From positions 15,173 to 79,172 of the forward strand of contig CAZXUA010000001.1 in assembly GCA_964643755.1 (NCBI GenBank): a stretch of DNA of 64,000 bases, read 5' to 3'. This DNA comes from an uncultured Desulfatiglans sp. GTDB taxonomy: Bacteria; Desulfobacterota; DSM-4660; Desulfatiglandales; HGW-15. This document shows, piece after piece, positions 3,454 through 54,940 of this stretch. The position numbers and the translations under genes are program-made. Below the pieces are notes generated by a model that was not told the origin of the DNA, did not search any database, and saw nothing but the letters and a program-made list of their open reading frames with translations. Position 1 is the stretch's first letter; each line of letters starts with the position of its first letter.

Positions 3454-3601
3454 AATGCTAATTCAATATGGAGAATAGCTCTAAATGTCAAGAAACAATA
3501 ATAAAACCTCCTAACTTAAAATATTGGGCGCTATATTTAAAGTCTGGTTAATTAACCTGTTTTGTAGTATAGAGAGACAAAAAAATAATGGTGGTACAGA
3601 A

Positions 3602-4114
3602 ATGAGCGATACACTTAAAATATTCAGGTTTCCTGACCCGGTCCTGAGGACAAAGGCAAAACCGGTTGAAAACATAGACGGAAAGCTACAAAAGCTAATA
3701 GATGACATGACCGAAACCATGTACAGGGCGCCCGGTATAGGGCTTGCTGCCATTCAGGTGGGTGAACCCATAAGTCTTGTTGTATATGATGTGGCACCCC
3801 CTGAGGAGGCACACAAGATCAACGTGATAATGAACCCGGAGATCGTCTCCCGCGAAGGCTCAATCACCTATGAAGAGGCATGCCTCTCTGTTTTTGACTA
3901 TTCCGCAGAGGTAAAAAGGAGCAACAGGGTAGTGGTGAAGGCTATTGATCGTGAGGGCAACCCAATAGAGATAGAGGCAGAGGGGCTGCACGCTGTCTGC
4001 CTTCAGCATGAGATAGACCACCTGAATGGTCTGCTTTTTATTGACCATATCAGCTCCTTGAAAAGGTCTCTATATAAAAACCGACTTAAAAAGATTTTAA
4101 ACAAAGAAGCATAA
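3602..4114 (+). CDS. def: peptide deformylase
   Basis: Motifs GIGLAAIQVG, EACLSV and QHEIDHLNG are present. The start was trimmed to MSDTLKIF, because the ORF-track start adds 26 non-conserved residues. Confidence 0.95.
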   Translation: MSDTLKIFRFPDPVLRTKAKPVENIDGKLQKLIDDMTETMYRAPGIGLAAIQVGEPISLVVYDVAPPEEAHKINVIMNPEIVSREGSITYEEACLSVFDYSAEVKRSNRVVVKAIDREGNPIEIEAEGLHAVCLQHEIDHLNGLLFIDHISSLKRSLYKNRLKKILNKEA

Positions 4115-4122
4115 CAGGGATA

Positions 4123-5091
4123 ATGGAACAGGTTATTTCAGACAGATTGCCGGAAAGGCCAAGGATCATCTACATGGGCACGCCTGACTTTGCTGTGCCT
4201 GCGCTTGTTAGCCTTGTAAAGGCCGGTTATGATATTGAGGCAGTTATTACCCAGCCTGATAAACCAAAGGGGAGGGGGCTTACCCTCTCATTCTGCCCAG
4301 TTAAGGAGGCTGCTATTGCATACGGGCTTAATGTAATGCAGCCTGATAATGTAAATAATCAACCATTCATAGAGGGGTTAAGGCTGATAAACCCTGATCT
4401 TTTTATTGTTGCTGCATTTGGTCAACTGCTTGGGCAGGAGCTGCTATCTGTGCCAAGGTTGGGAGCAATAAATATTCATGCATCACTTCTGCCTCTTTAC
4501 AGGGGTGCAGCGCCCATACAGTGGGCAATACTGGACAACAGGGCTGTAACAGGTATCACACTCATGAAGATGACAAAGGGGCTGGATAAGGGGCCTGTAC
4601 TATTTATGCATGAGGTTGCTATTCATGAAAATGAGACTGCCGGGGGACTTTTTGACAGGCTTGCAGCAATATCAGGGGATGTGATTGTAAGGTTTCTAAA
4701 GGAATTCGCGGGTAAAGAGATATCAGGCACACCGCAGGATGACAGGCTTTCCTCCTATGCCTCAAAGATAACAAAGGAGATGGCAAGGATAGACTGGACA
4801 AAGGGCGCTGTAAGTATTGCCGCGCTTATAAGGGCAATGGACCCCTTTCCCGGTGCAACAACAAATATGAATGGAAAGATCGTGAAACTCTTTTCACCTT
4901 TTGTTATTGATAAGATCACCAGGTCAGAAAAACCTGGAAGGATAATCACTGATGACCCTAACAGGCTTATGGTGGAGACAGGGGAGGGCATCATTGAAAT
5001 AGGTGAGATACAGCTCCCAAATAAAAACAGGATGGCTGTAAAGGCATTTTTAGCTGGCAACAGGATAGAAAAAGAGACCATATTATTATAG
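4123..5091 (+). CDS. fmt: methionyl-tRNA formyltransferase
   Basis: HASLLPLYRGAAPIQWAI motif. Directly follows def. Confidence 0.95.
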   Translation: MEQVISDRLPERPRIIYMGTPDFAVPALVSLVKAGYDIEAVITQPDKPKGRGLTLSFCPVKEAAIAYGLNVMQPDNVNNQPFIEGLRLINPDLFIVAAFGQLLGQELLSVPRLGAINIHASLLPLYRGAAPIQWAILDNRAVTGITLMKMTKGLDKGPVLFMHEVAIHENETAGGLFDRLAAISGDVIVRFLKEFAGKEISGTPQDDRLSSYASKITKEMARIDWTKGAVSIAALIRAMDPFPGATTNMNGKIVKLFSPFVIDKITRSEKPGRIITDDPNRLMVETGEGIIEIGEIQLPNKNRMAVKAFLAGNRIEKETILL

Positions 5092-5105
5092 ATTACAGCA
5101 CTCAT

Positions 5106-5149
5106 CGTTCAGCTTTCAGCTAACTGTTCTGAATGCTTTTAGCTGAACG
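5106..5149. repeat. TCAGC/GCTGA-unit hairpin (CGTTCAGCT ... AGCTGAACG)
   Basis: A 9-bp inverted repeat encloses more TCAGC units. It lies between fmt and the DUF116 gene. Confidence 0.55.
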
Positions 5150-5211
5150 CTAACTTGAAAATTGCGGTCTTATAAAAGGTATAACCGGAAAATAACCTTT
5201 CAGGGCAAAAG

Positions 5212-5991
5212 ATGAACGATTTTGATAACAGGCAGAGCAGAACCAGTGACAGAAACAGGTTTATCCTTCTGCTTCTTCTTACCTGCGCAGCGCTAATGGG
5301 GCTTGCTATACTCCTGTGGCTGATTCCATATATCGGTTTCAGCAATATCCATCCGAAGCTCCCCCTGATAATGGCGCTGTTTTTCGCTGCTGTAGTGCTG
5401 TACATGATCGGTGGCGGCCTGACCCTGATATTTACAATCCTGAGGGGTAAAAATCTCTTTTTCAACCGCAGGATAAGGGGTGTTGTCATACGTTTTCTAT
5501 TTCCCATGCTTGTGGTTATTGGAAAGCTTATTGGCATCAGTAAGGATCAGGTCAGGAGATCATTTATAGAGATAAACAATCAGCTTGTCCTTAGTGAGGC
5601 CAGAAAGGTAAAACCAGAAAAGCTACTCATTCTTTTACCCCACTGTTTACAGTTCCATGACTGCCAGGTCAGGATAACAGGGGATATATCAAACTGCAAA
5701 AAATGCGGTAAATGCAAGATCAGGGATCTGGTAAGTCTCACAGAAAGATATAATGTGCCGGTTTCTGTTGCAACAGGAGGCACCCTTGCTAGAAGAATAG
5801 TGGTGGAAAAGAGGCCGGATATCATCATTGCTGTAGCATGTGAGAGGGACCTTACAAGCGGGATACAGGACAGCTTCCCCATACCTGTATATGGAATATT
5901 AAACAAAAGACCGTTTGGCCCATGTTACGACACTGATATAGATATGGAGATGGTGGAAGGGGCTGTAAAGGCGTTTTTAGGCAATGGCTAA
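5212..5991 (+). CDS. DUF116-family membrane protein with C-terminal Cys cluster
   Basis: N-terminal TM helices, HCLQFHDC...CKKCGKC cysteines, and the conserved position between fmt and rsmB. Family assignment is from memory. Confidence 0.55.
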   Translation: MNDFDNRQSRTSDRNRFILLLLLTCAALMGLAILLWLIPYIGFSNIHPKLPLIMALFFAAVVLYMIGGGLTLIFTILRGKNLFFNRRIRGVVIRFLFPMLVVIGKLIGISKDQVRRSFIEINNQLVLSEARKVKPEKLLILLPHCLQFHDCQVRITGDISNCKKCGKCKIRDLVSLTERYNVPVSVATGGTLARRIVVEKRPDIIIAVACERDLTSGIQDSFPIPVYGILNKRPFGPCYDTDIDMEMVEGAVKAFLGNG

Positions 5992-11136: not shown

Positions 11137-11199
11137 AAAGAATTCCCCCTCTTTTTGGGTCATTTATTAAATTCATCCAAAACTGTTGTTTTTGAATGA

Positions 11200-11285
11200 A
11201 AGCGGTCAGCCATTAGCGTTCAGCATTCAGCAAAAGGCATATAATATAAAGAGTTAGCTGACAGCTGATAGCTGAATGCTCAAAG
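11200..11285. repeat. TCAGC/GCTGA-unit inverted repeat (…GTTCAGCATTCAGC … GCTGATAGCTGAATGCT)
   Basis: AGCATTCAGC at about 11221-11231 pairs with GCTGAATGCT at 11271-11280. More heptad units flank both arms. Confidence 0.6.
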
Positions 11286-11660
11286 CTTCATCCTGAATTA
11301 ACCTTTTTCAGGATGAAAAATATTAAAAAAAGACTAAAGAAAAACCTTATGCTATCCGATGTGAGGAAAGCGTTTGAATTTTAGGAAAAACAATATTGCT
11401 TGAAAATATGTAATAGTTAATTAAATTAAGTATAATTTACGAACAATTTTTAAATGGACACAATCAAAATAATAACTGGCATTAATTCTAATGTTCTGCT
11501 ATATTTCGCCGGCTTTTACAAGATGATCAGCATGGTAATGAAAAATTTACTTTACATCCATAAAAAAATCATTATTTTCATTTCGATTTTTATTTCGGAT
11601 AGTTCATGCGGCTTTCATCCTGTTGTGAGTAAATAGTAGAAGGAAGGTCATAGTTTTACA

Positions 11661-12533: not shown

Positions 12534-14414
12534 ATGGGCAAAATCCAAAAACTATCACAGAATGTCGCAAACCAGATCGCTGCCGGTGAGGTTATAGATA
12601 GACCTGCATCTGTTGTAAGGGAGCTCCTTGATAACAGCATAGACTCGGGCGCAGACAGGATAACCATTCGTATAGAAGAGGGCGGTAGCGGTCTTATAAG
12701 GGTTAGTGATAATGGGGCAGGCATGGACAGAGATGACCTGCTTCTGGCCATAGAAAGACACGCCACAAGCAAGATATCAACAGTCAGCGATATATTTACC
12801 ATTAAAACATTAGGGTTCAGGGGTGAGGCGCTTCCGAGCATATGTTCTGTCTCCAGGATGGAGATTACCACAAGGCCTAATGACCAGATATCCGCATTCA
12901 GGCTTAAAGCTAGTGGCGGGGTTGTAGAGTCGGTTGAGGAGACAGGCGCCCCAGCCGGCACAACAGTTGATGTACGAGACCTCTATTATAATACCCCTGC
13001 GAGAAAAAAATTCCTTAAAACAGAAAAGACAGAGGCTGGCCTGATAACCGACACGGTTTCAAGGATCGCATTGCCATTTTCAGATATATATATAAAATTA
13101 CTTGATAATTCCACAGGTAAGACAATACTGAATTTACCTTCATCTGATAGCGAACTTAACAGGTTGACTGCCCTGTTTGGTAAAGAGACAGCACAGACCT
13201 TTATGGATGCCCGTTTTGAGCATGAAAGGTTTTCCATAAGGGCATACCTTGCACCACCCGACCTTTCAAGAACCCGTAGCGACCGGATGTACCTCTATGT
13301 AAATAACCGCAATATAAGGGATAAACTTGTACTTAGCGCCATAACAGGCGGTTATGGTCAGCGGCTCATGAAGTGGCGTTACCCGCAGGTGGCCATTTTT
13401 ATTGATATTGACCCTGCCTTTGTGGATATCAATGTGCACCCTGCAAAACAGGAGGTGCGTTTTGAGGATGGGAGGCTCATATACCAGTCCATATCATCAA
13501 CCATCGCGAGGGCGCTGGGTGACCAGATAAACCCGTTCAGGCCCTTAAGTGATGTTTATATTGAAAGGCCCACTCAACTGTTCAGCCAATCTGTTGAGGT
13601 TGATCAGGATAAAAATAAGGATGTGCCTACACCGGATTATCATCAGGTAGAAAAAACTATTAGAGAAATACTTGAGGTTAAGGAATCAATACCACAGCAG
13701 CAGGGGATATTCAGCATGAAAAAGGCTGCGTATATTCCTGATGAAATTCATGAGGTGATTATTCCAGCAAGGGAAGAAAAGCCTGTTCATCATGAGCCAT
13801 ATCCTATTAATCCAGAACGCAGGCAGAAAAATATTGGTGACAACCTCACGGTCATTGGGCAACTCAAGGGCACCTATCTCTTATTTGAGGATAGGGATGG
13901 TCTGTTAATGATAGATCAGCATGCGGCCCATGAAAGGATAGTGTATGAAACCCTCAAGGCCAAATATGCAGCGAAAAAGATGGAGAGCCAGAATTTCCTT
14001 TTACCTGTTGATATAGAGCTATCTAATAAGGATGCAAGAATACTTGAAGTAAAACTTGAGCAAATCAATAACCTAGGTTTTGAGATAGAGCACTTTGGTG
14101 GTAACAGTTTTTTAATAAGGGCAGTACCGGCTATTCTTGTGAATACCGACTGGGAGAGTTTTCTAAAAGACCTTATCCCTGTGCTTTCCGAAGAGGATGA
14201 TCTTACTAATACAAAGGCAATGGATAAGCTCATTACTGTTATGGCATGCCATGGGGCAATAAGGGCAGGGCAGAGGATGACAGAAAGGGAGATAAACCTG
14301 TTACTTACCCAGCTCCAGAGCATTGATCTCGCAACCAACTGCCCGCATGGCAGACCTGTCTATAAAAAGATCAGCTACACTGAACTGGAAAAGATGTTCA
14401 AGAGGATAGTGTAG
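12534..14414 (+). CDS. mutL: DNA mismatch repair endonuclease MutL
   Basis: GHKL ATPase N-terminus (AAGEVIDRPASVVRELLDNSIDSGA), a DQHAAHERI endonuclease motif and a CPHGRP C-terminus. Confidence 0.95.
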   Translation: MGKIQKLSQNVANQIAAGEVIDRPASVVRELLDNSIDSGADRITIRIEEGGSGLIRVSDNGAGMDRDDLLLAIERHATSKISTVSDIFTIKTLGFRGEALPSICSVSRMEITTRPNDQISAFRLKASGGVVESVEETGAPAGTTVDVRDLYYNTPARKKFLKTEKTEAGLITDTVSRIALPFSDIYIKLLDNSTGKTILNLPSSDSELNRLTALFGKETAQTFMDARFEHERFSIRAYLAPPDLSRTRSDRMYLYVNNRNIRDKLVLSAITGGYGQRLMKWRYPQVAIFIDIDPAFVDINVHPAKQEVRFEDGRLIYQSISSTIARALGDQINPFRPLSDVYIERPTQLFSQSVEVDQDKNKDVPTPDYHQVEKTIREILEVKESIPQQQGIFSMKKAAYIPDEIHEVIIPAREEKPVHHEPYPINPERRQKNIGDNLTVIGQLKGTYLLFEDRDGLLMIDQHAAHERIVYETLKAKYAAKKMESQNFLLPVDIELSNKDARILEVKLEQINNLGFEIEHFGGNSFLIRAVPAILVNTDWESFLKDLIPVLSEEDDLTNTKAMDKLITVMACHGAIRAGQRMTEREINLLLTQLQSIDLATNCPHGRPVYKKISYTELEKMFKRIV

Positions 14415-14442
14415 TGTTCATCAGGTTGAAAGCTGTTAGAAT

Positions 14443-14844
14443 TTAGAGCCATTCCACATTTACCTTATCACCAAACAGTTTAAACTCCGGGTCACCGGTA
14501 ATTATTTTAGCCTTCTTCCTTATACCAAGGGCAGCTGCAAAACAATCCGCATAGGATACTGGATGGATACTTTTCAGCCCTGCTGCTTCAAGTGTGATTT
14601 CCATATCCGCATTCATAATGGTGATAGGCAATTGTTCAATCATAAAAACAGCTTCATCAGCCTTTTTACCTCCACGCTCCCGATATGTATTGTAATATAT
14701 CTCACCCAGATTAATTACCGATAAATAAAGCTTAACCTTTCCGGATTGTGCAGCTTTAAGAAATTTTCTGACTTTTTCACCGCCTGTTTCATCTTCAAAA
14801 TGTGCGATCAGTGCATAGCTGTCGAGGACATAGGAATTATCCAT
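14443..14844 (-). CDS. vapC: PIN-domain toxin VapC (module 1)
   Basis: 133 aa, N-terminal YVLDSYALI (PIN Asp). It overlaps the upstream antitoxin gene by 8 nt. Confidence 0.85.
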   Translation of the reverse strand: MDNSYVLDSYALIAHFEDETGGEKVRKFLKAAQSGKVKLYLSVINLGEIYYNTYRERGGKKADEAVFMIEQLPITIMNADMEITLEAAGLKSIHPVSYADCFAAALGIRKKAKIITGDPEFKLFGDKVNVEWL

Positions 14845-15073
14845 GTTTTGCCTCTTCTGCCCGGTCTTTTAATAGCGCCTTGGTTAGAGAAGTATTTCCC
14901 TTCAGCATACCCCTTGATGCCTCAATAGGATCATCCGGAATTGGCTTGATTAAAATCACATTCCCTTCGCCTTCTGATATAGCCATCCTGGTTCCCTTTT
15001 TAATGTCATACTTCTTCCTGAGTGATGCAGGAATTATAACGTGACCCTTTTCAGTAGTCTTTGCTATGATCAT
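14837..15073 (-). CDS. AbrB/MazE/SpoVT-type antitoxin (module 1)
   Basis: 78 aa. It has the looped-hinge-helix signature GHVIIPASLRKKYDIKKGT. Confidence 0.8.
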   Translation of the reverse strand: MIIAKTTEKGHVIIPASLRKKYDIKKGTRMAISEGEGNVILIKPIPDDPIEASRGMLKGNTSLTKALLKDRAEEAKHG

Positions 15074-15144
15074 GGTATACCTCCAAATAAAATGTTATAA
15101 CAAAATACTATTTAGTATACCATATGTCAAGCAGTTGATATTAA

Positions 15145-15260
15145 AGCATTGATTTAGCAACCAACTGCCCCCACGGAAGACCTGTCTATAAAAAGATCAG
15201 CTATACTGAACTGGAAAAGATGTTGATGTTCAAGAGGATAGTGTAACTGGTCTTATCAGG
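15145..15260 (+). repeat. orphan second copy of the mutL 3' end (last ~32 codons plus stop plus a few nt)
   Basis: It encodes SIDLATNCPHGRPVYKKISYTELEKMLMFKRIV*. Compared with 14319-14430 the differences are mostly synonymous, plus a 6-nt duplication. Confidence 0.85.
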
Positions 15261-15362
15261 ATATCGCACCAATATGAATTGTTTAATTTAAGAGGATTTA
15301 TTGACAATGTTTCACTGAGCGTATATACTTTCGGTAAATGTATATACGGAAAGGAACAGCTT

Positions 15363-15626
15363 ATGGCATTAAGTATAAGAAATCCACAGGCTGAAAAGCT
15401 TGCAAAAGAAATCATCGCCATAGATGGGGGGAATGTTACCCAGGTTATAATCAACGCCCTACAGGATAAGCTTGATCGTCTTCGTGGAAGAACAGCTCAT
15501 ACAGATATTGCAAAAGAGATCATGGATATTTCCAGCAGGTGCAGTTCCATTCCTGATATAGACAAAAGAGATCCTGATGAAATCCTGGGCTATAACAGTA
15601 ATGGTATAAATAATAATGGTTATTGA
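15363..15626 (+). CDS. vapB: VapB-family antitoxin (Rv0623/PSK-like) (module 2)
   Basis: MALSIRNPQAEKLAKEI... N-terminus typical of this antitoxin family. It overlaps the downstream PIN gene. The start was trimmed from the track ORF. Confidence 0.7.
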   Translation: MALSIRNPQAEKLAKEIIAIDGGNVTQVIINALQDKLDRLRGRTAHTDIAKEIMDISSRCSSIPDIDKRDPDEILGYNSNGINNNGY

Positions 15627-16026
15627 TACCTCCGCCTTAATAGCTATACTACTTGGCGAACCCGAAGCTGCGGTCTTTGCCAGAGTAATATCATATGATC
15701 CCAAAAGATTGATGAGTGTTTTTACATATCTTGAGAGCAGTATTGTTATAGAGGCAAAAAAGGGTGAGGCAGGTGGCAGAGAGCTTGACCTGCTTATTAA
15801 CAGGGCAGGTATTGAAATCGTGGGGATGGAACATGAGCAGGCTGAAATCGCCAGGACTGCCTGGAGGAGATTTGGTAAAGGACGGCATCCTGCTGGACTG
15901 AATATAGGAGATTGCTGTTCATATGCCCTTTCAAAATATTCAGGTGAACCACTTCTTTTTAAAGGTGCTGACTTCTCAGCCACAGATGTTGCGGTTGTAC
16001 ATACTGTATCAGATAAAGCAAACTGA
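15616..16026 (+). CDS. vapC: PIN-domain toxin VapC (module 2)
   Basis: MVIDTSALIAILLGEPE N-terminus and NIGDCCSYALS near the C-terminus. Confidence 0.85.
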   Translation: MVIDTSALIAILLGEPEAAVFARVISYDPKRLMSVFTYLESSIVIEAKKGEAGGRELDLLINRAGIEIVGMEHEQAEIARTAWRRFGKGRHPAGLNIGDCCSYALSKYSGEPLLFKGADFSATDVAVVHTVSDKAN

Positions 16027-16072
16027 AATCGCGATATCGTATATTTAAGAAGAGCCCAATCTTTACTTTATA

Positions 16073-16101
16073 TTGACATACAATACCCAACTTCATATAC
16101 T
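16073..16101 (+). promoter_or_regulatory. strong sigma70-type promoter TTGACA-17-TATACT
   Basis: -35 at 16073-16078 and -10 at 16096-16101. This would give a ~155-nt leader before the OmpA-like gene. Confidence 0.55.
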
Positions 16102-16264
16102 TTATGCCTTTAAAAAAGAATTCTTAATGCCTGAATTTTGCATCGGGTTTTGTAGTATGGCTATAAAAGCTCAAGGGTGCCTGGTTAAAAATTCAGGTAT
16201 TAAATCAGGTCTAACCGCTTAACAAATTATTTTAATTTTTTATATATTATAGAGGAGTTCAGAT

Positions 16265-16924
16265 ATGGGAAAAAATATTTGTTTGTTAATTATTCTATTT
16301 GTCATTTCAGGCCTATTATGCTCCACAGGTTGTGAAACCACACGAACAACAAAAGGTGCAGGTATTGGGGCAGCGGCAGGCGCAGCAGTTGGCGCTATCA
16401 TCGGGCATCAATCCGACCACAGGACAGGGGGAGCAGTAATCGGCGGAGTTGTTGGAGGTGCTGTGGGAGCCCTTATAGGAAGGCGACTTGATAACCAGGC
16501 AAAGGAACTGGAGCAGGTTCAAGGCATGCAAAGTGTTAAGGTAGACCAGGAACAGCAGAAGATTGAAGCCATTTTGAAGATCAATTTTGATGTGGATAAG
16601 GATATCATTAAGCCTGCAGAGGCCACCAAACTCAATGAGCTGGCAGCTGTCTTTGCTCATTATCCTGAAAATATTGTTGTGCTGGAAGGTCATACCGACT
16701 CTGATGGTTCTGAGGCATACAATCAAACACTCTCAGAAAAACGTGTAAAATCTGCGGAAAACTATCTCAGGGGGAAAAATTTAAATATCGCAAGCCTTTC
16801 ATCGATCGGATATGGGGAGACCAGGCCGATAGCCTCAAATGAGACACCGGAAGGCAAGGCACAGAACCGAAGGGTTGAGATAAAAATCTCTGTTGATCCA
16901 AATCGTGTCCCTCAGAATCAGTGA
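16265..16924 (+). CDS. OmpA-family lipoprotein with glycine-zipper segment
   Basis: Lipoprotein-like signal, a G/A-rich glycine zipper, and a C-terminal OmpA_C block (EGHTDSDGSEAYNQTLSEKR...NRRVEI). Confidence 0.85.
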   Translation: MGKNICLLIILFVISGLLCSTGCETTRTTKGAGIGAAAGAAVGAIIGHQSDHRTGGAVIGGVVGGAVGALIGRRLDNQAKELEQVQGMQSVKVDQEQQKIEAILKINFDVDKDIIKPAEATKLNELAAVFAHYPENIVVLEGHTDSDGSEAYNQTLSEKRVKSAENYLRGKNLNIASLSSIGYGETRPIASNETPEGKAQNRRVEIKISVDPNRVPQNQ

Positions 16925-16957
16925 GCATAGCGCCAACTCAAATGAGAGGAGATTATT

Positions 16958-18310
16958 ATGACACTATTTTCAACCCGTGGGATTAAATCACAGGGTCGTT
17001 ACAGCCGACGTGAATTTATAATGATATCTTCCATAGCCTCAGCCGGTCTCCTTGCGGGATGTGCGATTAATCCGGTTACAGGACAAAAACAGTTGATGCT
17101 GGTGTCAGAGGAGTGGGAGATACAGGTCGACAGGCAAAATTCTCCTCATCAGTTTTCTGCAGACTACGGGATATTACAGGATGCAGCATTAAATAGTTAT
17201 ATTCAGCAGGTCGGGGCAGAAATGGCCCCCTATACCCATCGGCCCAAAATGCCATATTCCTTTCAGGGGGTCAACGCAACCTATATCAATGCCTATGCCT
17301 TTCCGGGCGGGAGCATTGCCACTACACGCGGCATCCTCCTTTCCCTTGAAAGCGAGGCAGCGCTCTCTGCTCTTCTCGGTCATGAGATGGGTCATGTCAA
17401 TGCCAGGCATACGGCTCAGCAGATGTCAAAAGGCACACTTCTTCAGGCTGTCGCAGGAGGACTCAGCGTATATGCCAGCACCAAAAGCGAAACCTACGGA
17501 CAGCTTGCCAGTCAACTGGGCATGCTGGGGGCAGGTGCTCTTCTGGCACGCTATAGCCGTGACAATGAAAGAGAGGCTGATTATCTGGGTATGACATATC
17601 TGGTAAAAAAAGGTTATGGGGCGGAAGGATCGATACAGCTTGCGACCATGCTGAACAGCCTCAGCAAAGGAAATTCAAATATTGCTTCAGTGCTTTTTTC
17701 CACCCACCCTATGAGTCAGGAGCGCTATGACACATCGGTGAAACTTGCTAATACTGAATTCAGTTATGCTAAAGGAAGGCCTTTGTATCGTGAGCGATAC
17801 ATGGATAATACTGCGCCTCTTAGAAAGATTAAGCCCGCTATTGAGAATTTTCAGAAGGCCGAGGAGTTGATGGCTGCTAAATCATATGACAAGGCGGGAG
17901 AGTTTTTGAAGCAGGGGTTAAAGGCTGCACCCGGGGATTATGCGGGGCTGGTAATGATGGCAAAATGCCAGTATACGCAAAAAAATTTTAGCGAGGCGCT
18001 TAAATATTCAGAGCAGGCCAGGCAGGCATATCCAAGTGAGGCTCAGGCAAACCATATGAGCGGGCTTTCTTATATCCAATTGAAGAAGTTTGATAATGCA
18101 ATCGAAGAATTTAATCTCTATGAGAAGAAGCTGCCTGGAAATCCTAACACCCTTTTTTTCAGGGGTTACGCCTATGAGGGGATGGGCAACAGGCAAAAAT
18201 CAGCCGAAGATTACACCCGATATCTTAAGCAGGTCACAGAAGGTGAGCAGGCGCAGCATGCCTACAAAAGCCTGGTAAACTGGGGAGTGGTAAAAGAGAA
18301 GTCACAGTAG
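16958..18310 (+). CDS. M48-family zinc metalloprotease with C-terminal TPR repeats (BepA-like), Tat-lipoprotein signal
   Basis: The SRREFI twin-arginine motif is followed by an LLAGC lipobox. An HEMGH zinc motif and TPR-like repeats occupy the last ~130 aa. Confidence 0.8.
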   Translation: MTLFSTRGIKSQGRYSRREFIMISSIASAGLLAGCAINPVTGQKQLMLVSEEWEIQVDRQNSPHQFSADYGILQDAALNSYIQQVGAEMAPYTHRPKMPYSFQGVNATYINAYAFPGGSIATTRGILLSLESEAALSALLGHEMGHVNARHTAQQMSKGTLLQAVAGGLSVYASTKSETYGQLASQLGMLGAGALLARYSRDNEREADYLGMTYLVKKGYGAEGSIQLATMLNSLSKGNSNIASVLFSTHPMSQERYDTSVKLANTEFSYAKGRPLYRERYMDNTAPLRKIKPAIENFQKAEELMAAKSYDKAGEFLKQGLKAAPGDYAGLVMMAKCQYTQKNFSEALKYSEQARQAYPSEAQANHMSGLSYIQLKKFDNAIEEFNLYEKKLPGNPNTLFFRGYAYEGMGNRQKSAEDYTRYLKQVTEGEQAQHAYKSLVNWGVVKEKSQ

Positions 18311-18313
18311 ATG

Positions 18314-18609
18314 ATGTCCAAGAGGATAGTGTAGTGTTCATCAGTTTGAAAGTTGCTATAATTTAGACCCATTCCACCTTTACCTTATCACCAAAAAGTT
18401 TAAACTCAGGTTCACCTGTAATGATTTTAGCCTTTTTCATTATACCAGGGGCTGCTGCAAAACAATCCGCATAGGATACCGGATGGATGCTTTTCAGCCC
18501 TGCAGCTTCAAGTGTGATTTCTTTATCCGCATCCACAATAGTGAGCGGCAATTGTTCAATCATAAAAACAGCTTCATCAGCCTTTTTTCTGCCACGCTCT
18601 CGATATGTA
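18314..18609 (-). pseudogene. third mutL-tail fragment plus truncated vapC (3' 66 codons only)
   Basis: An ~296-bp direct repeat of 14394-14689. ORF 18363..18563 encodes the C-terminal half of VapC-1 with few substitutions. Homology stops abruptly at 18609. Confidence 0.85.
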
Positions 18610-18636
18610 AGTCAAAAAATTCTGGTCTCTCTTCAT

Positions 18637-18748
18637 GTCGCTCCCCATGCGGGAGTGTGGATTGAAACGCGCAGAGCGCAGAGAGCAGAGAGCGAAGTGC
18701 AAAGGGTTTAAGTCGCTCCCCCTTAAGCAGCGTGTGAATCAGCGCAAC
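18637..18748 (+). CRISPR. relic CRISPR array: one intact 32-nt repeat, one 43-nt spacer-like segment, one degenerate repeat
   Basis: GTCGCTCCCCATGCGGGAGTGTGGATTGAAAC (18637-18668) has the palindromic core and ATTGAAAC end that I recall for type I-C repeats. The second copy GTCGCTCCCCCTTAAGCAGCGTGTGAATCAGCGCAAC (18712-18748) is degenerate. No cas genes are in the window. Confidence 0.5.
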
Positions 18749-19017
18749 TTCAATAACAAAGAAACTCATGAGATGCAGAACTATTTACACCACACTTGAT
18801 ATTTCTAAAAAAAAGGCCTAAGAATGGCTGAACGCATCAATAGAGGCACAATAATGTATAACATCCTATCCGCAAAAACAGGAGGATTAAAGCGCCTACA
18901 TAAAACATCACAGCTCTTTATCTGAAAGTCTTTCAATATCATTACCTGTCATCGCATTAATAAAATTAAAGGCCTTGATCAGGGAAACCATTTAATACTA
19001 AACCAGGGGGTAAGTGT

Positions 19018-19590
19018 ATGAGTGCAGATAAAAAGGTAAAAGCCGGATCAACAAGAAGGAAATTTATCAAAGAACTTGCCATTGGCAGCTCAACAATAGC
19101 GGTTGCCAGCGCTGTGCCGGGAATTGCTGCTGAGGCTGAACATGCGCTTAAGGGTGTTTCTCAGGACACCTCGGATGGAAAGAGCAGGTATGGCAAGTGC
19201 ATAGTTCCATTACCGATCCGCAAGTTCGGTGAGACAGTGATGTTTTCTGCCGGGGCAGAGCTCTTAAATGGCTTTCCATGTAATATTATTTATGCATTCG
19301 GGCTCAAGGTCGGCCCATTAGGGTTATCCAGAAAACCGCATGTGCATGACCATGATGAGGTGATCTACTTCATAGGGTCAGATCCGAAAAGCACTGAGCT
19401 GGGCGCAGAGGTGAATTTCAAGATAGGGCCAAAGGGGCAGGAGGAAGACCATATATTTTCCGTGCCCACTGCTGTTGTTATCCCGAAAGGGGTATGGCAC
19501 TGCCCAATGGAAACCCTGAAATGCGACCAGCCATTCCTTTGCATGGCGGTCTCCATCACAAATAATTACAGGTTTGAATCGTCAAAATAA
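19018..19590 (+). CDS. Tat-exported cupin-fold protein (paralog A)
   Basis: STRRKFIK twin-arginine signal. Cupin motif HVHDHDEVIYFIG...PKGVWHCP. Paralogous to 22008..22673. Confidence 0.6.
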   Translation: MSADKKVKAGSTRRKFIKELAIGSSTIAVASAVPGIAAEAEHALKGVSQDTSDGKSRYGKCIVPLPIRKFGETVMFSAGAELLNGFPCNIIYAFGLKVGPLGLSRKPHVHDHDEVIYFIGSDPKSTELGAEVNFKIGPKGQEEDHIFSVPTAVVIPKGVWHCPMETLKCDQPFLCMAVSITNNYRFESSK

Positions 19591-19633
19591 AAAGGAGTTG
19601 CAACATTATTCACATTCAATTCAAGGAGGAGAT

Positions 19634-20482
19634 ATGATTCGCAGATATTTTATAGCAGTATTGTTAGGTGCATTAATCATTAATGCTTTGTCTGTTTTGG
19701 CTTCATCAGAGTGCAGCAGGGCCGCGCTTCAGGAGAAAGCGGATAAGTATCTTGATGCGCTAAAAAAGGGATCATCTTCTGTCATGCCTCTTGCGCCTCA
19801 GGCAAAGTACATAGAAAACAGGAAAGAGATCCCTTTTAACGAAGGCATCTGGAAAGAGCCTCTCTCCATAGATTTCAGCCGCAGCCTTTTTGATGTGGAT
19901 ATCTGCCAGAGTTTTACAGAGATAATCCATGCAAATGGCAGCCATCCATATGTGATCGGCACCAGATTGAAGGTGGAAGATGGAAAGATATCAGAGGTGG
20001 AAAGCCTTGTGAGTGATGAGGATGACTGGCTCTTCAATGCTTCAGACTATCTCAAATATTCATCAACAGAAAAATGGGACATAATTCCTGCTGATAAACG
20101 CATGGACAGGAACGCCCTTATCAAGGTGGCAAGCGACTACTTTGACATATTTCAGGATTATGCAGCCTTTGACAGGATACCCTGGGGCATACCATGTGTG
20201 CGCATTGAGGGCGGAGCATATACAAATCCAAATAATGACCCTGAACCTTCATGCACAGCAGGTGTTCCAAAGGGCGGCGGCGTTCCTATGACAAACCGCA
20301 GCTATATTGTTGATGTGGATATGGGTTCAGTTGTGGGTTTTGTTGATTTTGGCGGGGCAAACGGCCTGCCTGATGCCCACACCTTTAGGCTTGAGAACGG
20401 GAAGCTCAGGTATGTTCATGTGATTACACTTTGCCCGAATGGATGCCCGAAAATACCAATGCCAAAGGATATGCCCAAATAA
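19634..20482 (+). CDS. secreted protein of unknown function
   Basis: Start set at MIRRYF..., preceded by an AAGGAGGA RBS. It has a Sec-type signal peptide and I recognise no family motif. Confidence 0.55.
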   Translation: MIRRYFIAVLLGALIINALSVLASSECSRAALQEKADKYLDALKKGSSSVMPLAPQAKYIENRKEIPFNEGIWKEPLSIDFSRSLFDVDICQSFTEIIHANGSHPYVIGTRLKVEDGKISEVESLVSDEDDWLFNASDYLKYSSTEKWDIIPADKRMDRNALIKVASDYFDIFQDYAAFDRIPWGIPCVRIEGGAYTNPNNDPEPSCTAGVPKGGGVPMTNRSYIVDVDMGSVVGFVDFGGANGLPDAHTFRLENGKLRYVHVITLCPNGCPKIPMPKDMPK

Positions 20483-20498
20483 AACAGAGGAGGATTAA

Positions 20499-21968
20499 AT
20501 GCACGGTGCGGAAAAAAAGAGATTCAATGCGGGACGCAGGGATTTTATCAAAACCATAACTATGGCAGGCGTAGCCGCAACTTTGCCAGCCGGGGCCTTT
20601 GCTGAGATGAATAGTGAAGAGGCTCCCCGGGCAAAACGGGCAGGTGGTAAAAAAAATATTCTTTGCCTTAGTGACAACCCTGAAACAAATGCAAAGTTTA
20701 TAGAGTCAATAGGAGCAATCCCCGGAACCACTCTTAAGGTATCTTCGCTAAAGGTCGATTATAAGAATCCCGAAGAGATTGTCAGGGCTGTTAATGAACA
20801 GGGCATGGATATACTCCTTCTGATCCTTCCCAAAATGACCTTCAGCTTTGGAAAGCTTTGTGACACAATGGGTGATCTTGAGATTCCTTTAATCGTCCTT
20901 ACCACAAACCCGGAGCTGATCCCTATAGATGCAAATCTTGCATCATCTTTAAGGGGAAATGGCGCAAATGTTACATTTGCGATTTCTCAGGAACAGGCGT
21001 TGGAGCGTATCAGGATTGCAGCATCACCCATGCTGCTTGAAGGCCAGCGCGCACTCCTGTATGGAAGGCCGTTTGACTCCACCACAGTAACCTCCCATAA
21101 CCTGAACGAAGAGATAATATTCCGGCGCACCGGGGTAAAAGTAATGTTCAGGCCAATTGAGGAACTGGCAGAACAATATAAAAAGATAGACGATAAAGAT
21201 GCCATAAAAGAGATGGAAAGATGGAAAAGGGAGGCTGCACAGGTTGAAGGTGTTTCTGATAAGACCATTATCGATGCATGCAGACTCTATGTTTTGTTAC
21301 GCTCACTGGTGGATAAAGAGGGGTTAAGTGCTGTTTCTATCGATTGCCTTGGTTTTACACTCAGCCCGAATCCTGTGCTGCCATATCCATGCCTTGCCTT
21401 TTCCAGGTTGCGGGATGAGGGTATAACTGCTGCCTGTGAAGCGGATGTGGTAAGTATGCTCTCATCCATGTTAATGGAACAAATAAGCCGCAAGCCTTCA
21501 TTTATGTGCAACCTGATGAGAGCAAATCCTGATGATTCAAATATAACAGTGAGTCACTGCGTTGCGCCATTGAAGCTCAATGGTACTGATGCCCCCCACT
21601 TGAAATACAGGCTTCACTCCTATCACGGGTTCGGCAAAGGGGCAGTGCCTGAGGTTGAATTTCCGCAGAACGGGAAGGTGCTGATAGGCGGGTTCAGCAA
21701 GGATCTGAAATACTTCACCCTGTGGCCCGGACAGATAGCAAGCCAGGTGAAGGATACTGAAAAGGCAAAGACAAAGAGCGGCCCGATAAACACTGCCTGT
21801 GCCAACACGATGGATATTAAAATCAGGGATCCGGAGAGGTTCATTCAAAACATCCCCGGGCTTCATCAGGTTGTTGTGTGCGGAAATTATACCGGCGCCA
21901 TTGAAAGCGCACTGACAGGAATGAATGTTAAACTTAACGGCCCAATGGATTTCACGCCGTTTACTTAG
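20499..21968 (+). CDS. Tat-exported L-fucose/L-arabinose isomerase-like protein (tentative)
   Basis: GRRDFIK twin-arginine signal. The overall length and the ...ITAACEADV... and ...HCVAP... blocks resemble the FucI/AraA-like superfamily. From memory, unverified. Confidence 0.45.
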   Translation: MHGAEKKRFNAGRRDFIKTITMAGVAATLPAGAFAEMNSEEAPRAKRAGGKKNILCLSDNPETNAKFIESIGAIPGTTLKVSSLKVDYKNPEEIVRAVNEQGMDILLLILPKMTFSFGKLCDTMGDLEIPLIVLTTNPELIPIDANLASSLRGNGANVTFAISQEQALERIRIAASPMLLEGQRALLYGRPFDSTTVTSHNLNEEIIFRRTGVKVMFRPIEELAEQYKKIDDKDAIKEMERWKREAAQVEGVSDKTIIDACRLYVLLRSLVDKEGLSAVSIDCLGFTLSPNPVLPYPCLAFSRLRDEGITAACEADVVSMLSSMLMEQISRKPSFMCNLMRANPDDSNITVSHCVAPLKLNGTDAPHLKYRLHSYHGFGKGAVPEVEFPQNGKVLIGGFSKDLKYFTLWPGQIASQVKDTEKAKTKSGPINTACANTMDIKIRDPERFIQNIPGLHQVVVCGNYTGAIESALTGMNVKLNGPMDFTPFT

Positions 21969-22007
21969 GGCATAGAAATAACAACCATTAATTTAAAGGA
22001 GGCATAT

Positions 22008-22673
22008 ATGAGTTCTGACCTGAAAAATGAAAAGAGCACATCACGCAGGGTGTTTATGAAGGAAATAGGCGCGGGCACAGCAGGGGTTGTCATGGCGGGC
22101 ATGTTTGGCGCGGCCTTCATGCCTGCGATGAAGGGCTTTGCGGAAACAGCAAGCACGATTGACCCAAAGGCGCCAGAGGGGTCAAAGTATCGTAAATGTT
22201 TTTTAAACGAACTGACAAAAGAGGAGAGGGATATAGGTTTTGGCGCAAGCCCCATGTTTGTCACCTTTGCAGATAATGACATCATAGAGGGGAGCCAGTA
22301 TTTTTCGGTCATGTGGATGGGCGAAAGGACAAGCAAGATGCTGGGGCACGGGCCACACACCCACCCTGTGCCTGAAATGCTGATAGCGATCGGTTCTGAC
22401 CCGAAAAACCCTGAGGATCTGGGTGCAGAGTTTGAGATGTTTATGGGAGAGGAGATGGAGAAGCATATTATCACCAAATCAACCATGATCTACATCCCCC
22501 CAAACACAGTGCACTGCCCGTTTAATATTAACAGGGTGACAAGGCCATTCCTCTTTATGCAGTCACACTATGGCGGTAAGCTGACCGAAAAGGCGAGGAG
22601 AGACCTGGTGCCAGAGGATATGAGGAACAAGTACATCTTTATAGATATGGATGGCTCCTCGGAAAAGAAATAA
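22008..22673 (+). CDS. Tat-exported cupin-fold protein (paralog B)
   Basis: SRRVFMK twin-arginine signal. It shares the block PH.H...E....IGSDPK...LGAE...IP...HCP with 19018..19590. Confidence 0.6.
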   Translation: MSSDLKNEKSTSRRVFMKEIGAGTAGVVMAGMFGAAFMPAMKGFAETASTIDPKAPEGSKYRKCFLNELTKEERDIGFGASPMFVTFADNDIIEGSQYFSVMWMGERTSKMLGHGPHTHPVPEMLIAIGSDPKNPEDLGAEFEMFMGEEMEKHIITKSTMIYIPPNTVHCPFNINRVTRPFLFMQSHYGGKLTEKARRDLVPEDMRNKYIFIDMDGSSEKK

Positions 22674-51097: not shown

Positions 51098-51140
51098 AAA
51101 GCAGGCTGAAGCTTTTTAGACTATAGGCTTTTAGGTTTTT

Positions 51141-52037
51141 TTAATGAAGTCGCTTCAGCCTTTCCCTGCCCGACATAGCTTTTATCGACGTCGGGAGTCT
51201 AAATAGCTTCGGACTATTATTTATAATAAGCCCCAGCATCACAAGTACACATCCGATTATGAACCTGGCAGTTATTACCTCATTTACTATTACAAGACTC
51301 AGCAGGATCGTGACCACTGTCTCCAGATAGAATATAATGCTCCCCTTTGCAGCAGGCACCTCCTTATATCCATAGGTCATCATGACCTGTGCGGCAAAGG
51401 TGAGAAACCCTATCAGGAATAGAAGAAAAAACCCGTTTGTTGTAATCAGGCTGAATTCATGAAAGCTGAAGGGTATTGTTGCCATGCCGAATATGCATGG
51501 TGAGAGATAGATAATCAGGCTGCTGTCTGTCTCCCTTGCCTTTTTAATGAATATAATGGCAAAGCTTGCTGCAATACCTGCGAGAATGGCAATCAGGTCA
51601 CCAACAATATTGTATGAGCTTCCATCATACATGATAAAGAATAAGCCCGCAGTACACAAAACCAGGCTTACTATAATACCCTTTGTAATCTTTTCCCTGA
51701 AAAGCAGAAAACCTAATATAGTGACAAATATCGGGTATATCTTTTCGATCATAGCGGTTCTACCGCTTGAAGTGAGGTGGATTGCCACATAAAATGAGAT
51801 CATGGCAGCAGCCCCGGCCACACCCCTTAGAACCCAGTATTTTTTGTTGTTAATCCTGAAGCCCTCTCCTGAGATAAGTATGGCAGAAACAGTGAATATA
51901 ATCCCAAACAGGAATCTTATTGAAGATATGAATATCCCTGAATAGTGCTCAGATGCGATCTTTACAATCACGAAATTGACTGCAAATAGACATGCGGACA
52001 TATAGAGCGTTGCATATGATAAATAAATCTTGCTCAT
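51141..52037 (-). CDS. DMT-superfamily (EamA-like) transporter
   Basis: 10 predicted TM helices in two EamA-type halves. 298 aa. Confidence 0.8.
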   Translation of the reverse strand: MSKIYLSYATLYMSACLFAVNFVIVKIASEHYSGIFISSIRFLFGIIFTVSAILISGEGFRINNKKYWVLRGVAGAAAMISFYVAIHLTSSGRTAMIEKIYPIFVTILGFLLFREKITKGIIVSLVLCTAGLFFIMYDGSSYNIVGDLIAILAGIAASFAIIFIKKARETDSSLIIYLSPCIFGMATIPFSFHEFSLITTNGFFLLFLIGFLTFAAQVMMTYGYKEVPAAKGSIIFYLETVVTILLSLVIVNEVITARFIIGCVLVMLGLIINNSPKLFRLPTSIKAMSGRERLKRLH

Positions 52038-52103
52038 GATCTTATTATTATCTTAAGTTCCAATTTCAAGCGCACATTACTATAAAGAGGTTAATATTTA
52101 TTT

Positions 52104-52178
52104 ACCACGGAGAACACGGAGGTCATGGAGATTTTATATTTTAAGCTTTTCTTCCGTGCTCTCCGTGTCCTCAGTGGT
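52104..52178. repeat. CACGGAG-unit hairpin repeat, copy 3
   Basis: ACCACGGAGAACACGGAGGTCATGGAG ... CTTCCGTGCTCTCCGTGTCCTCAGTGGT. It lies 3' of the PPIase gene. Confidence 0.75.
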
Positions 52179-52212
52179 CAGTTATTATATTTTATCCTTA
52201 CTAAAATGAGTG

Positions 52213-53043
52213 TCAGTTCTTTTCCTTTTCCTCAATAGTTGCCCGGTTAATAATAAGCGGCTCCTTTGGTGTGCCGTTCCGGGTGCCGGATGCCTCAAGT
52301 TTTTTAACCACATCCTGACCTCCTACCACCTCGCCAAAGATCGTATGCTTTCCATCAAGATGAGGGGTTGCAGAAAATGTGATAAAAAACTGGCTTCCGT
52401 CTGTGCCAGGCCCGGAATTCGCCGTGCTTAAAAGATATGGCCTGTTATGTTTAACATTAGGATTGAACTCGCCATCATAGCTGTAACCCGCATCACCTGT
52501 GCCTGTACCAAAGGGGCATCCTGCCTGTGCCATAAACCCAGGGATCACACGGTGAAATGTGATGCCGTTATAGAACCCCTTTTTTGTAAGAAAGATTGTG
52601 CTTGTAACATGCATAGGCGCCACATCCGGCATCAGTCTGAGTTTGATTTGCCCTTTGTTTGTGTCCAGAATCCAGATATATTCGATATTTTTATCAAAGG
52701 TCATCATATCAGGTTTTTTAAGCTGGATCTTCCATGCCTTGTCACCAAGTATTTTAGCTGCCTGTAGCTTTTTCTGCTCAGACTGGTAATCCCTCATTAT
52801 TTGTTTGATCTCATACTGTGAAAAACGGGCTGGCCTACTCTCCAAAACCTCTTTAATACCATCAATCATAATATTGTAATCAGGATCAATATCCTGTCTT
52901 TTTAGAAGGTTACCGATTTGAACCCCGACAGCATAGCTCATTTTATCCTTACCGGTTTTCAGGTCAGTCTGATTTTCATCCCCATTTAGATGAAATGTAA
53001 TCAGGAATTCCAGTAAGATTAATGTGATCAGTTTTTTCATCAT
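52213..53043 (-). CDS. periplasmic cyclophilin-type peptidyl-prolyl isomerase with FKBP_N-like N-domain
   Basis: Signal peptide, MSYAVGVQIGNLLK (FKBP_N type), and a cyclophilin core FHRVIPGFMAQAG...GSQFFIT. Confidence 0.85.
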   Translation of the reverse strand: MMKKLITLILLEFLITFHLNGDENQTDLKTGKDKMSYAVGVQIGNLLKRQDIDPDYNIMIDGIKEVLESRPARFSQYEIKQIMRDYQSEQKKLQAAKILGDKAWKIQLKKPDMMTFDKNIEYIWILDTNKGQIKLRLMPDVAPMHVTSTIFLTKKGFYNGITFHRVIPGFMAQAGCPFGTGTGDAGYSYDGEFNPNVKHNRPYLLSTANSGPGTDGSQFFITFSATPHLDGKHTIFGEVVGGQDVVKKLEASGTRNGTPKEPLIINRATIEEKEKN

Positions 53044-53116
53044 AATACCTCTCCTGTTGGTTAACTATAAAATATTAAATGATGAACAGTGTGCGAGGAA
53101 AATAGAGTATATTCCT

Positions 53117-53157
53117 TAAAAAAAAGGCCTGCTTTTAATAAATATAAAAGCAGGCCT
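53117..53157 (-). terminator. intrinsic terminator (13-bp stem AGGCCTGCTTTTA / TAAAAGCAGGCCT plus U8 on the minus strand)
   Basis: Perfect 13-bp inverted repeat with a 7-nt loop. An A8 run on the plus side gives a U-tract for the minus-strand lipoprotein gene. Confidence 0.8.
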
Positions 53158-53251
53158 GATAATCCCTATTGATTTGTACTGATAAGTCAAAAACAGGGTA
53201 TATAAGACATTACAGCCAGGAATAAGGCTTAATATCTATATGCGCCTTTAA

Positions 53252-53662
53252 CTATTTTTGCTCTGGTGCAGGGGGCATTATGCTTTCAACCGCCTTCTGA
53301 GCGCCCTCTTTAACATCCTGAGCTGCATCATTTACTGCGCCTGTAACCGCTTCGGTTGCTTCTCCAACCTTTTCACCAACCTGCTGTGTTACATCAGAAG
53401 CCTGTTCTGCTACTGTTGTGGCTACATCAGATACTGCATCGCCAACAGTTTCAACAGCCTCCTCAACCGGGGCTGTTACGTCAGCAGGAGCTGCTTCCTC
53501 AACGGGAGTTGCAGGAACTGCTGCTTCAGGAGCAGGCGCCGCCTCTTCTGTTACGGCTGCCGGGGCAGCAGCCTCTTCTTCAGCTGGTTTTGAGCAACCG
53601 CTAAAAACGAAAGCCATCATAAGAATGATCATAAACAATACGCTAATCTTTTTCATTTCCAT
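53252..53662 (-). CDS. Ala/Glu/Pro/Val-rich low-complexity lipoprotein
   Basis: FSGC lipobox, followed by ~110 aa of repetitive A/E/P/V/T sequence. Confidence 0.6.
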   Translation of the reverse strand: MEMKKISVLFMIILMMAFVFSGCSKPAEEEAAAPAAVTEEAAPAPEAAVPATPVEEAAPADVTAPVEEAVETVGDAVSDVATTVAEQASDVTQQVGEKVGEATEAVTGAVNDAAQDVKEGAQKAVESIMPPAPEQK

Positions 53663-53848
53663 CCTCCATTTATTAAATATTTTAAATCTCTGTCTGAATT
53701 AAACCATACCACAAGGATGTAACTAACATAGATACATCATATCCCGTGGTAAATGCGCCTAAAAAAATTGGCGGATTATAAACAAGATTTTTATTAATAA
53801 CAAATAAAAAATTAAAAAAATATTATGCCCATTATTTCCACTTGTCAA

Positions 53849-54940
53849 TCAGTATACCCCCTCATTAAGCCTGAGATCACCCATGATCTTGCCGGCGATG
53901 GTAAATACCCTGCCCAGTATTGAGTTGGCCTCGCTGAATGGGCCAAGGGCATCAACACCTGAATTCATGCCAAGCTCTTTTCTTATGGGGCCGTTTACAA
54001 CAATCATATTTGCCGCAGAGCTTGTGGAATTGCCAAAGCAGTTTGCCCTGGTGCATATCGCAAGAATGTTCGGGAAATACTTTTGCGTGGCCCCTGCCAT
54101 TACCGCATAAACAGCAGCCTTTTCAACTGTCATTTTGCGGGAGCCATATTCACACACGATCTCATCAGGTTTATGGCTCGTGCCTGTAAGCATCTTTGCC
54201 ACACGCTCTTCAGTTGGAAGGATGATCGGATTAAAATCTGTCCATTCCTTATCATTGAACAATCTTCGTAAGTTATCCTCTGTATCAGACGAAAGGAGGC
54301 GCGGTTCAGGTTCTGCGCCCTGCGGTAAACCTGCAAATTTCTCATCATTAGTTAATGGCAGGGTAAGTCCATCTATAATGGCCTGCATCATGGGCTTATC
54401 GCTCAAGAGGTCTTTCCCTTCAACATACGCCTTATGCACAGACCTTGGCTGCCCGGCAACCGGGAAAGGAAAGGCAACATATCTTATGGGCATGCCATTA
54501 TCATATTTAACATTATAATCTTTAAATTTAACAACATTTATTCCTGATGCGCCAACAGTGGGTATGTTCTTTTCTTCAAGCGCCCGCGCAAATCGGCTCA
54601 CGACCGACACACATCCGTGTCAGCCGCCAATCCCAATTACTGCGCCGCGTGCATTTGCAGCTATCTCTGCCCTGAGATCAGGGTCATCGCCCATCCAGCC
54701 ACCCTTTGATCTCCTTCCCTCTACCTTTACCGACGGCATGTTTTTATTAAACCACCCCTTCATCTCGGTAAAAACAGAGTAACCAGCCTCAGGGCCTCCC
54801 CACTGAAGATCAACCAGGTAAATGGTTTTACCTTCAAGGGTATCATTTACAGGTATGAGACTCTATTGAATAAAACTGGTTATGTCAAGAACGTGGTGCT
54901 CGCCCGGTAAAAGGCTGGTTCCGGATGAAGCTTTCAGCTC
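53849..54940 (-). pseudogene. UxxC (UGSC-family-like) seleno/redox protein gene with in-frame TGA, an extra in-frame TAG and no recognisable start
   Basis: One frame reads ...HHVLDITSFIQ-TAG(54863-54865)-SLIPVNDTLEGKTIYLVD...GAVIGIGG-TGA(54620-54622)-HGCVSVVSRFARALEEKNIPTV... into ORF 53849..54610. Confidence 0.5.

Follow-up and report, generated by a model that had tools for sequence, protein, structure and literature searches.

Repeated mutL gene ends downstream of mutL in an uncultured Desulfatiglans-like bacterium and their possible origin by recombination

The mutL locus and its orphan gene ends

In this study, a stretch of 64,000 nucleotides (nt) from an uncultured Desulfatiglans sp. 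(GenBank assembly GCA_964643755.1, contig CAZXUA010000001.1, positions 15,173 to 79,172 of the forward strand), hereafter called the window, was analysed with respect to the region behind the mismatch-repair gene mutL, in which the 3' end of this gene occurs three times in the same orientation. The resident end (t1) belongs to the intact gene, and two orphan tails (t2 and t3) lie downstream of it. Tails t1 and t2 enclose a toxin-antitoxin (TA) module, vapBC-1, and between t2 and t3 there are a second TA module, vapBC-2, and a gene pair encoding an OmpA-like protein and an M48 peptidase with TPR repeats (ompA-M48). A truncated second copy of a vapC toxin gene, vapC', follows t3 (Table 1). The closest MutL proteins (81-88% identical) are those of Desulfatiglans-like metagenome-assembled genomes (MAGs), and the host is a member of this clade, i.e. 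of an uncultured lineage of sulfate reducers.

A repeat search and BLASTN confirmed what a preliminary description of this DNA had reported, namely that the 3'-terminal 96 nt of mutL (14319-14414) occur again at 15145-15246 with no gene attached; a stop codon stands immediately upstream of the copy, which extends for about 14 nt past its own stop codon. Positions 14319-14398 correspond to 15145-15224 (93% identity over the first 80 nt) and 14393-14413 to 15225-15245 (100% over 21 nt), the two matches being split by a 6-nt in-frame duplication, so the t1/t2 direct repeat is 93-100% identical across 102 nt and brackets inserted DNA. The translation of t2 comprises the 31 residues of the resident tail plus an LM insertion. 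All seven base differences between t2 and t1 are silent (six in sense codons and TAG>TAA), although the synonymous share among random single changes is only 20% (P ~6.5e-5 for an all-silent t2), which implies that t2 was, until recently, a working mutL end; the earlier view that this copy stems from a once-functional allele is thereby strengthened. The 14 nt behind its stop codon (15247-15260) match those behind the resident mutL in three related loci (L001, L003 and L085), and CAC-GGA, TAA and the post-stop ctggtc are common to t2 and the resident allele of L085, so that t2 looks like a displaced former resident end. To judge from the substitution pattern, the tail copies descend from real mutL ends, and t2 from a once-functional allele.

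The third copy forms part of a longer direct repeat, in which 14393-14689 correspond to 18313-18609 (89.9% identity over 297 nt, E 2e-112, BLASTN). It was previously estimated by eye at nine in ten identical positions, which agrees with the alignment; its mutL part is confined to 22 nt (18313-18334) and is not a longer tail. The rest of the repeat is made up of the 28-nt spacer together with the 3' half of vapC. The 11 nt behind the stop codon of t1 are present in this copy as well and also in L002. Between vapC' and vapC1 there are 25 nt differences (10%), 17 of them at third codon positions, and the vapC' frame is open up to an abrupt break at 18609/18610. Besides t2 and t3, no further copies of the mutL tail were found in the 64-kb window. 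The additional copies of the gene end are scars without a function.

The orphan tails start at different positions of mutL, i.e. at -96 (t2), at about -90 (the orphan tails of L001 and L085) and at -24 (t3). At the t3 junction, GATGT(T) is common to the 3' flank of M48 (TAGATGATGTTT in L085) and to the mutL tail (AAGATGTTCAAG), and a three-way comparison of the window junction, the M48 flank of L085 and the mutL tail revealed that the window switches parent exactly at GATGT. A target stretch that spans -96 to +11/+14, counted from the mutL stop, lies on both sides of the vapBC-1 cassette.

Since the source is a metagenome, and an identity of 89-93% between the copies would be compatible with strain variants, a mis-joining of such variants during assembly was considered, and its probability is negligible. 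An independent contig of the Joint Genome Institute (JGI), L081, is 99.99% identical to the window, and L001, a separate MAG (~90% identity), has the same t1/t2 layout together with a third tail of its own; L085 and L087 likewise carry their own tail pair. At 14656, three Logan contigs break off exactly at the shared 31-mer boundary: this is the last 31-mer found in copy 1 alone, and beyond it lies a 41-nt stretch that is identical in copy 3.

Table 1. Features of the mutL locus of the window
Feature	Position	Strand	Description
mutL, 626 aa	12534-14414	+	Pfam MutL_C, DNA_mis_repair, HATPase; conserved left anchor of the variable region
Resident tail t1	14319-14425	+	last 96 nt of mutL plus 11 nt post-stop (tgttcatcagg); reference for the repeats
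vapBC-1 cassette, ~710 nt	14426-15133	-	own promoter-like site 15130-15102; ends set by ~80% nt alignment to L094
vapC1, PIN	14443-14844	-	Pfam PIN 5.5e-16
vapB1, MazE/AbrB-type antitoxin	14837-15073	-	Pfam MazE_antitoxin 2.3e-7
11-nt filler gttgatattaa	15134-15144		between the vapBC-1 cassette end and t2; matches neither L094 nor mutL
Orphan tail t2	15145-15260	+	mutL -96 to stop, 6-nt in-frame duplication, 14 nt post-stop (ctggtcttatcagg)
vapBC-2 module	15261-16054	+	promoter-like site 15301-15329
vapB2, Rv0623-type antitoxin	15363-15626	+	Pfam PSK_trans_fac 7.1e-18
vapC2, PIN toxin	15616-16026	+	Pfam PIN 3.2e-17
ompA-M48 operon segment, BepA-like	16055-18312	+	promoter-like site 16073-16101; 83% nt identical to and collinear with L093
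ompA-like, OmpA/Gly-zipper	16265-16924	+	Pfam
M48+TPR	16958-18310	+	Pfam
Orphan tail t3	18313-18334	+	final 22 nt of mutL; joined to the M48 3' flank on GATGT (18313-18317)
vapC' segment	18335-18609	-	second copy of post-stop 11 nt, cassette edge, vapC 3' half; truncated at 18609/18610
PIN fragment (vapC')	18363-18563	-	weak Pfam PIN match

Genes between the tail copies

The genes that had been named from the letters alone (both VapBC pairs, the OmpA-like protein and the M48/TPR protease) were each recovered by Pfam, but the assumption that they constitute one foreign islet did not survive. The M48/TPR protein is BepA-like and has thousands of homologues, with the smooth identity gradient typical of a core gene. 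In an outgroup MAG with the gene order mutL-miaA, a separate contig (L093) reads MIP-ompA-M48-EamA-PPIase and is collinear with the window at 16059-18306 and then at 51217-54841, in the same orientation. This collinearity identifies ompA-M48 as a core operon, probably relocated, which extends from its promoter to a point shortly behind the stop codon and is separated by ~33 kb (18311-51140) from its ancestral neighbours EamA-PPIase; as far as synteny can tell, the pair is native core DNA and not foreign cargo. A model of tandem duplication and random loss was also considered, and no M48 remnant was found beside EamA at 51098-51140. The 33-kb block includes genes of sugar-acid metabolism as well as TonB-receptor and histidine-kinase genes; it contains no mobility genes and is matched by none of the flanks fetched from relatives.

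In this clade M48 ends five codons early (18305-18310), by a CAG>TAG change relative to L093 (...KSQQGAVN and stop). An interpretation of the post-M48 sequence of L001 and L085 as a degenerate short tail, with the end of M48 as the breakpoint, was dropped because the alignment with the outgroup shows this point change; compared in this way, the sequence is probably the native 3' flank.

Both vapBC pairs have the layout of type II VapBC modules, a small antitoxin gene directly ahead of the PIN toxin gene, with gene overlaps of 8 nt (vapBC-1) and 11 nt (vapBC-2). In a Desulfobacterales MAG (L094), a vapBC-1-like cassette, ~80% identical at the nucleotide level, has a pseudouridine synthase gene as its neighbour, and no flanking duplication was found around this cassette. 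The presence of the cassette in another order of bacteria without a duplication indicates that the duplication does not belong to the cassette as such. Between the window and L001, the vapBC-1 cassettes share 95% identity, against a genome background of ~90%, and of the DNA between the tail copies only this cassette looks, from such comparisons, horizontally mobile. The vapBC-2 module is missing in L085 and L087, which have a REP-like (repetitive extragenic palindrome-like) repeat in its place, and is present without ompA-M48 in the contig carrying P0005. It is bordered by a 7-nt direct repeat, GATATCG (15258-15266 and 16032-16039), whose left copy in L001 has one mismatch; this pair could be a target-site duplication or the result of chance (roughly 2%).

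The region downstream of mutL in related genomes

The upstream gene order amidohydrolase-bamE-radC-PLC-mutL is kept in all relatives compared, whereas the DNA downstream of mutL is not. Behind the conserved radC-PLC-mutL block there are seven different arrangements, in which no mobility genes were detected. That of L001 (a Deltaproteobacteria MAG, ~90% nt identity; MutL 88%) reads mutL-vapCB-t2-vapB2C2-ompA-M48 in the same manner as the window and continues with a 91-nt orphan tail and dcd. In L002 and L088 (MutL 85% and 83%), ~100 nt of vapC remnants are followed by lnt. Three contigs of JGI sample 3300075153, known from gene tables alone, carry vapCB, vapB2C2, cutA and dapF (contig with P0005, MutL 81%), HicB and vapCB (P0002, MutL 88%), or vapCB, a hic-like pair, DUF4145 and cutA (P0241). 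Related genomes lacking inserts, for which the preliminary description had proposed to look, were found as well. In L085 and L087 (MutL 88%), the region behind mutL holds a REP-like repeat, ompA, M48, a decayed orphan tail, a further REP, dcd and a gene for a 1422-aa protein, and no TA modules were found there; the outgroups L005 and L090-L092 (MutL 67-69%) have the classical order mutL-miaA, and self-searches of their mutL loci yielded no orphan tails.

Across lineages, the modules are thus the vapBC cassette, a second vapBC, a hicAB-like pair, ompA-M48, dcd with a large P-loop protein, or nothing. The orthologous orphan tails of L001 and L085 contain nonsynonymous changes and frameshifting indels, which shows that those tails are decaying. 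A search of metagenome contigs with the mutL-tail DNA pattern gave two matches only, L085 and L086. On the strength of these alignments and gene orders, the stretch downstream of mutL can be described as a variable spot of the Desulfatiglans-like clade, at which lineages carry different 'alleles'.

The REP-like intergenic repeat has a 7-nt period (GCTGAnnGCTGAnn), is dispersed and often occurs as inverted pairs (11 matches versus 0.39 expected). Its copies were located at 126-149, 5104-5151, 11201-11280 and 54929-54952 of the window, at 8103-8119 of L001, and at 337-353 and 2877-2893 of L085; one follows every mutL tail in L001, L085 and L087. Compared with L001, L002 and L087, the window has an inserted 157-nt copy (11166-11322).

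Searches for mobility genes and other signals

No Pfam hit to an integrase, resolvase or transposase was obtained for the 58 main open reading frames (ORFs) of the window (overlapping shadow ORFs of at least 110 aa left out), in line with the earlier remark that no integrase is left in it. Likewise, no recombinase was found near tail copies in the flanks of L001, L002, L081 and L087-L092, which cover ~7-10 kb downstream of mutL, and the mutL-tail pattern had no match in viral contigs. The GC content over 10-24 kb displays no sharp island signature. An Rfam scan of the window returned two tRNAs only and no match in the tails (an E-value scan of 18550-19050 was also empty), and a promoter/terminator scan detected nothing in the tails, terminator-like sites included. 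No specific account of mutL as an integration site came up in literature searches.

Origin of the mutL-end copies

With a probability of roughly 0.55, the tails were left behind by integrase-free recombination between divergent alleles of the region downstream of mutL. DNA of one allele would recombine into a chromosome carrying another, with a homologous left crossover inside mutL and a right end joined illegitimately, at a short microhomology in the last 25-100 nt of the recipient mutL. The incoming DNA would supply a working mutL end, and the old end of the recipient would be pushed downstream together with its own cargo. Repeated rounds would stack t1, vapBC-1, t2, vapBC-2-ompA-M48, t3 and vapC' in this order, and the window may combine a left part similar to L001 with the DNA of a lineage carrying mutL-vapBC directly. 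The ~100-nt tails, once in place, would serve as homology arms, so that RecA could add or delete modules. The repeats, their functional-allele origin, the polymorphism of the relatives, the core nature of ompA-M48, the differing junctions, one of them at a microhomology, and the absence of a detected recombinase gene are observations; we infer the direction and order of the events, and the involvement of RecA and of illegitimate joining. That the nested pattern needs several events, as initially suggested, is supported.

Such a course of events resembles homology-facilitated illegitimate recombination, which was reportedly described by de Vries and Wackernagel in 2002 in naturally transformable bacteria: one homologous anchor is combined with an illegitimate join at a few-base microhomology near it, and this would give the donor end followed by the displaced end of the recipient. 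That process was described in transformable bacteria, however, and is here a candidate route, for which microhomology was checked at a single junction. A published study (PMC13617665) deals with TA-only islets devoid of mobile-element genes that spread by homologous recombination at flanking core genes, and the integrase-free reading of the mutL tails fits this picture. As in those islets, compact TA modules lie at a core gene, mobility genes are lacking, the distribution among relatives is patchy and erosion is seen (the vapC remnant in L002 and the truncated vapC' in the window); unlike them, the mutL end is duplicated at the module borders, a feature that a search of that study's text did not find. 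Defence or variable hotspots with core-gene flanks, such as cDHS1/2 of Pseudomonas aeruginosa (PMC10250203), also combine a fixed core flank with content that is highly variable in close relatives and often without detectable mobility genes, but at the mutL locus the content is mostly TA modules and relocated housekeeping genes, and the flank is mutL instead of a tRNA/tmRNA locus.

Several points weigh against integrase-free recombination. Two independent orphan tails, t2 and that of L001/L085, have starts no more than ~6 nt apart, and the ends of all copies lie close to the stop codon (+0 to +14), a pattern that would also be expected of a site-specific integrase. Microhomology is demonstrable at one junction only, that of t3. 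The flank available per relative is ~10 kb, and a recombinase may sit farther away or elsewhere in the genome; the three contigs of the JGI sample are represented by gene tables, with their junction DNA unread. Moreover, several orders of events are compatible with the data, so the order is not uniquely fixed.

Integrative elements are known to insert at gene 3' ends and to restore the gene, leaving attL/attR repeats, as do tRNA/tmRNA islands and SGI1 at trmE. The preliminary description read the locus in this way, and classical serial site-specific integration would mean that elements with an attP mimicking the last ~100 nt of mutL inserted in succession, each restoring the gene and leaving the old end as attR, with the integrase genes since lost or acting in trans from another part of the genome. 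The directly repeated gene ends on which this rested are real: mutL is intact, the old end is distal, tandem stacking is possible, the repeat ends near the stop codon, t2 comes from a functional allele and shares its approximate start with the orphans of L001 and L085, and vapBC-1 appears horizontally mobile. Nevertheless, serial integration is unlikely, as neither the window ORFs nor the examined flanks of relatives contain a detected recombinase, the junctions do not all coincide (-96 and ~-90 are close, but t3 begins at -24, on the GATGT microhomology), ompA-M48 is core DNA and not the cargo of an element, the vapBC cassette occurs in L094 without a duplication, and the pattern was not found in viral contigs.

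An intrachromosomal rearrangement could alternatively have brought ompA-M48 and vapBC to the mutL end, either by template switching of the kind modelled as break-induced replication mediated by microhomology (MMBIR; PMC2621351) or by tandem duplication and deletions, with short stretches of the stop region duplicated as target overlaps. This would suit a native ompA-M48 whose ancestral neighbours are ~33 kb away on the same strand, the microhomology at the t3 junction, and the duplicated stretch spanning the stop codon that flanks each insert. It is nonetheless rather improbable, since the exclusively synonymous differences between t1 and t2, and the 10%, mostly third-position divergence between vapC1 and vapC', are better explained by divergence in separate genomes than by decay of duplicates in situ, and since vapBC-1 of the window and L001 exceeds the genome background in identity. 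Still less credible, indeed very improbable, is a retention of the orphan tails for a function as RNA structures, terminators or promoter-upstream elements of neighbouring cassettes: t2 does lie directly upstream of the vapB1 promoter-like site and shows better conservation in the window than it does in L001, but its predicted RNA fold is no better than that of shuffled sequences (z = 0.07), it has no terminator-like site or Rfam match, and its orthologues in L001 and L085 have accumulated nonsynonymous changes and frameshifting indels.

Integrase-free recombination might have a more active form, although this is doubtful: the mutL stop region would be a cassette-stacking site at which each module carries a ~100-nt tail as a portable homology arm, and RecA alone would insert, delete and reorder cassettes between strains. 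In a variant of this idea, the mutL end would be recognised by a recombinase acting in trans, comparable to XerCD, which recognises dif in the case of dif-integrating elements.

Other features of the window and its relatives

At 18637-18668, 27 nt to the right of the break that truncates vapC', the sequence GTCGCTCCCCATGCGGGAGTGTGGATTGAAAC resembles a type I-C-style CRISPR repeat, with a 7-bp stem-loop and then a tail ...ATTGAAAC. Next come a 'spacer' of low complexity (42 nt) and a second, degenerate repeat (~18711-18747). There is no Rfam hit, and no cas genes are present in the window; a lost array may have had its trailer end here. Four consecutive ORFs without a Pfam match occupy 19018-22673, and the outer two (19018-19590 and 22008-22673) encode ~30% identical paralogues with twin-arginine-like N-termini.

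Behind the orphan tail of L001 (8239-13151) and L087 (14597-19509), a dCTP-deaminase-like gene is accompanied by a gene for a protein of 1422-1448 aa, which contains a Walker-A-like GTGKT motif and has no Pfam match. In L087, Phd/ParE and HicB modules follow this gene pair, which may be of the defence type. A second small variable spot is found in L087 at 3601-5389, where genes for an AAA_15/AAA_21 ATPase and a 210-aa protein are inserted between rpe and the amidohydrolase gene; the window has a tRNA-Ser there.

Significance

The mutL-end copies add a further case to a known type of genomic scar. It provides a reason for caution in annotation, as direct repeats of a gene end are insufficient evidence for an integrative element, and apparent 'cargo' may consist of relocated core genes. 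The cassette-stacking reading, if true, would make the locus an 'integron without an integrase' with a mismatch-repair gene as its anchor; unless the tails drive cassette exchange, the biological impact is modest. The locus is a clean and datable example of how small TA modules accumulate downstream of a conserved gene, and even housekeeping operons do so, without the machinery of mobile elements, with the displaced gene ends recording the order of events.

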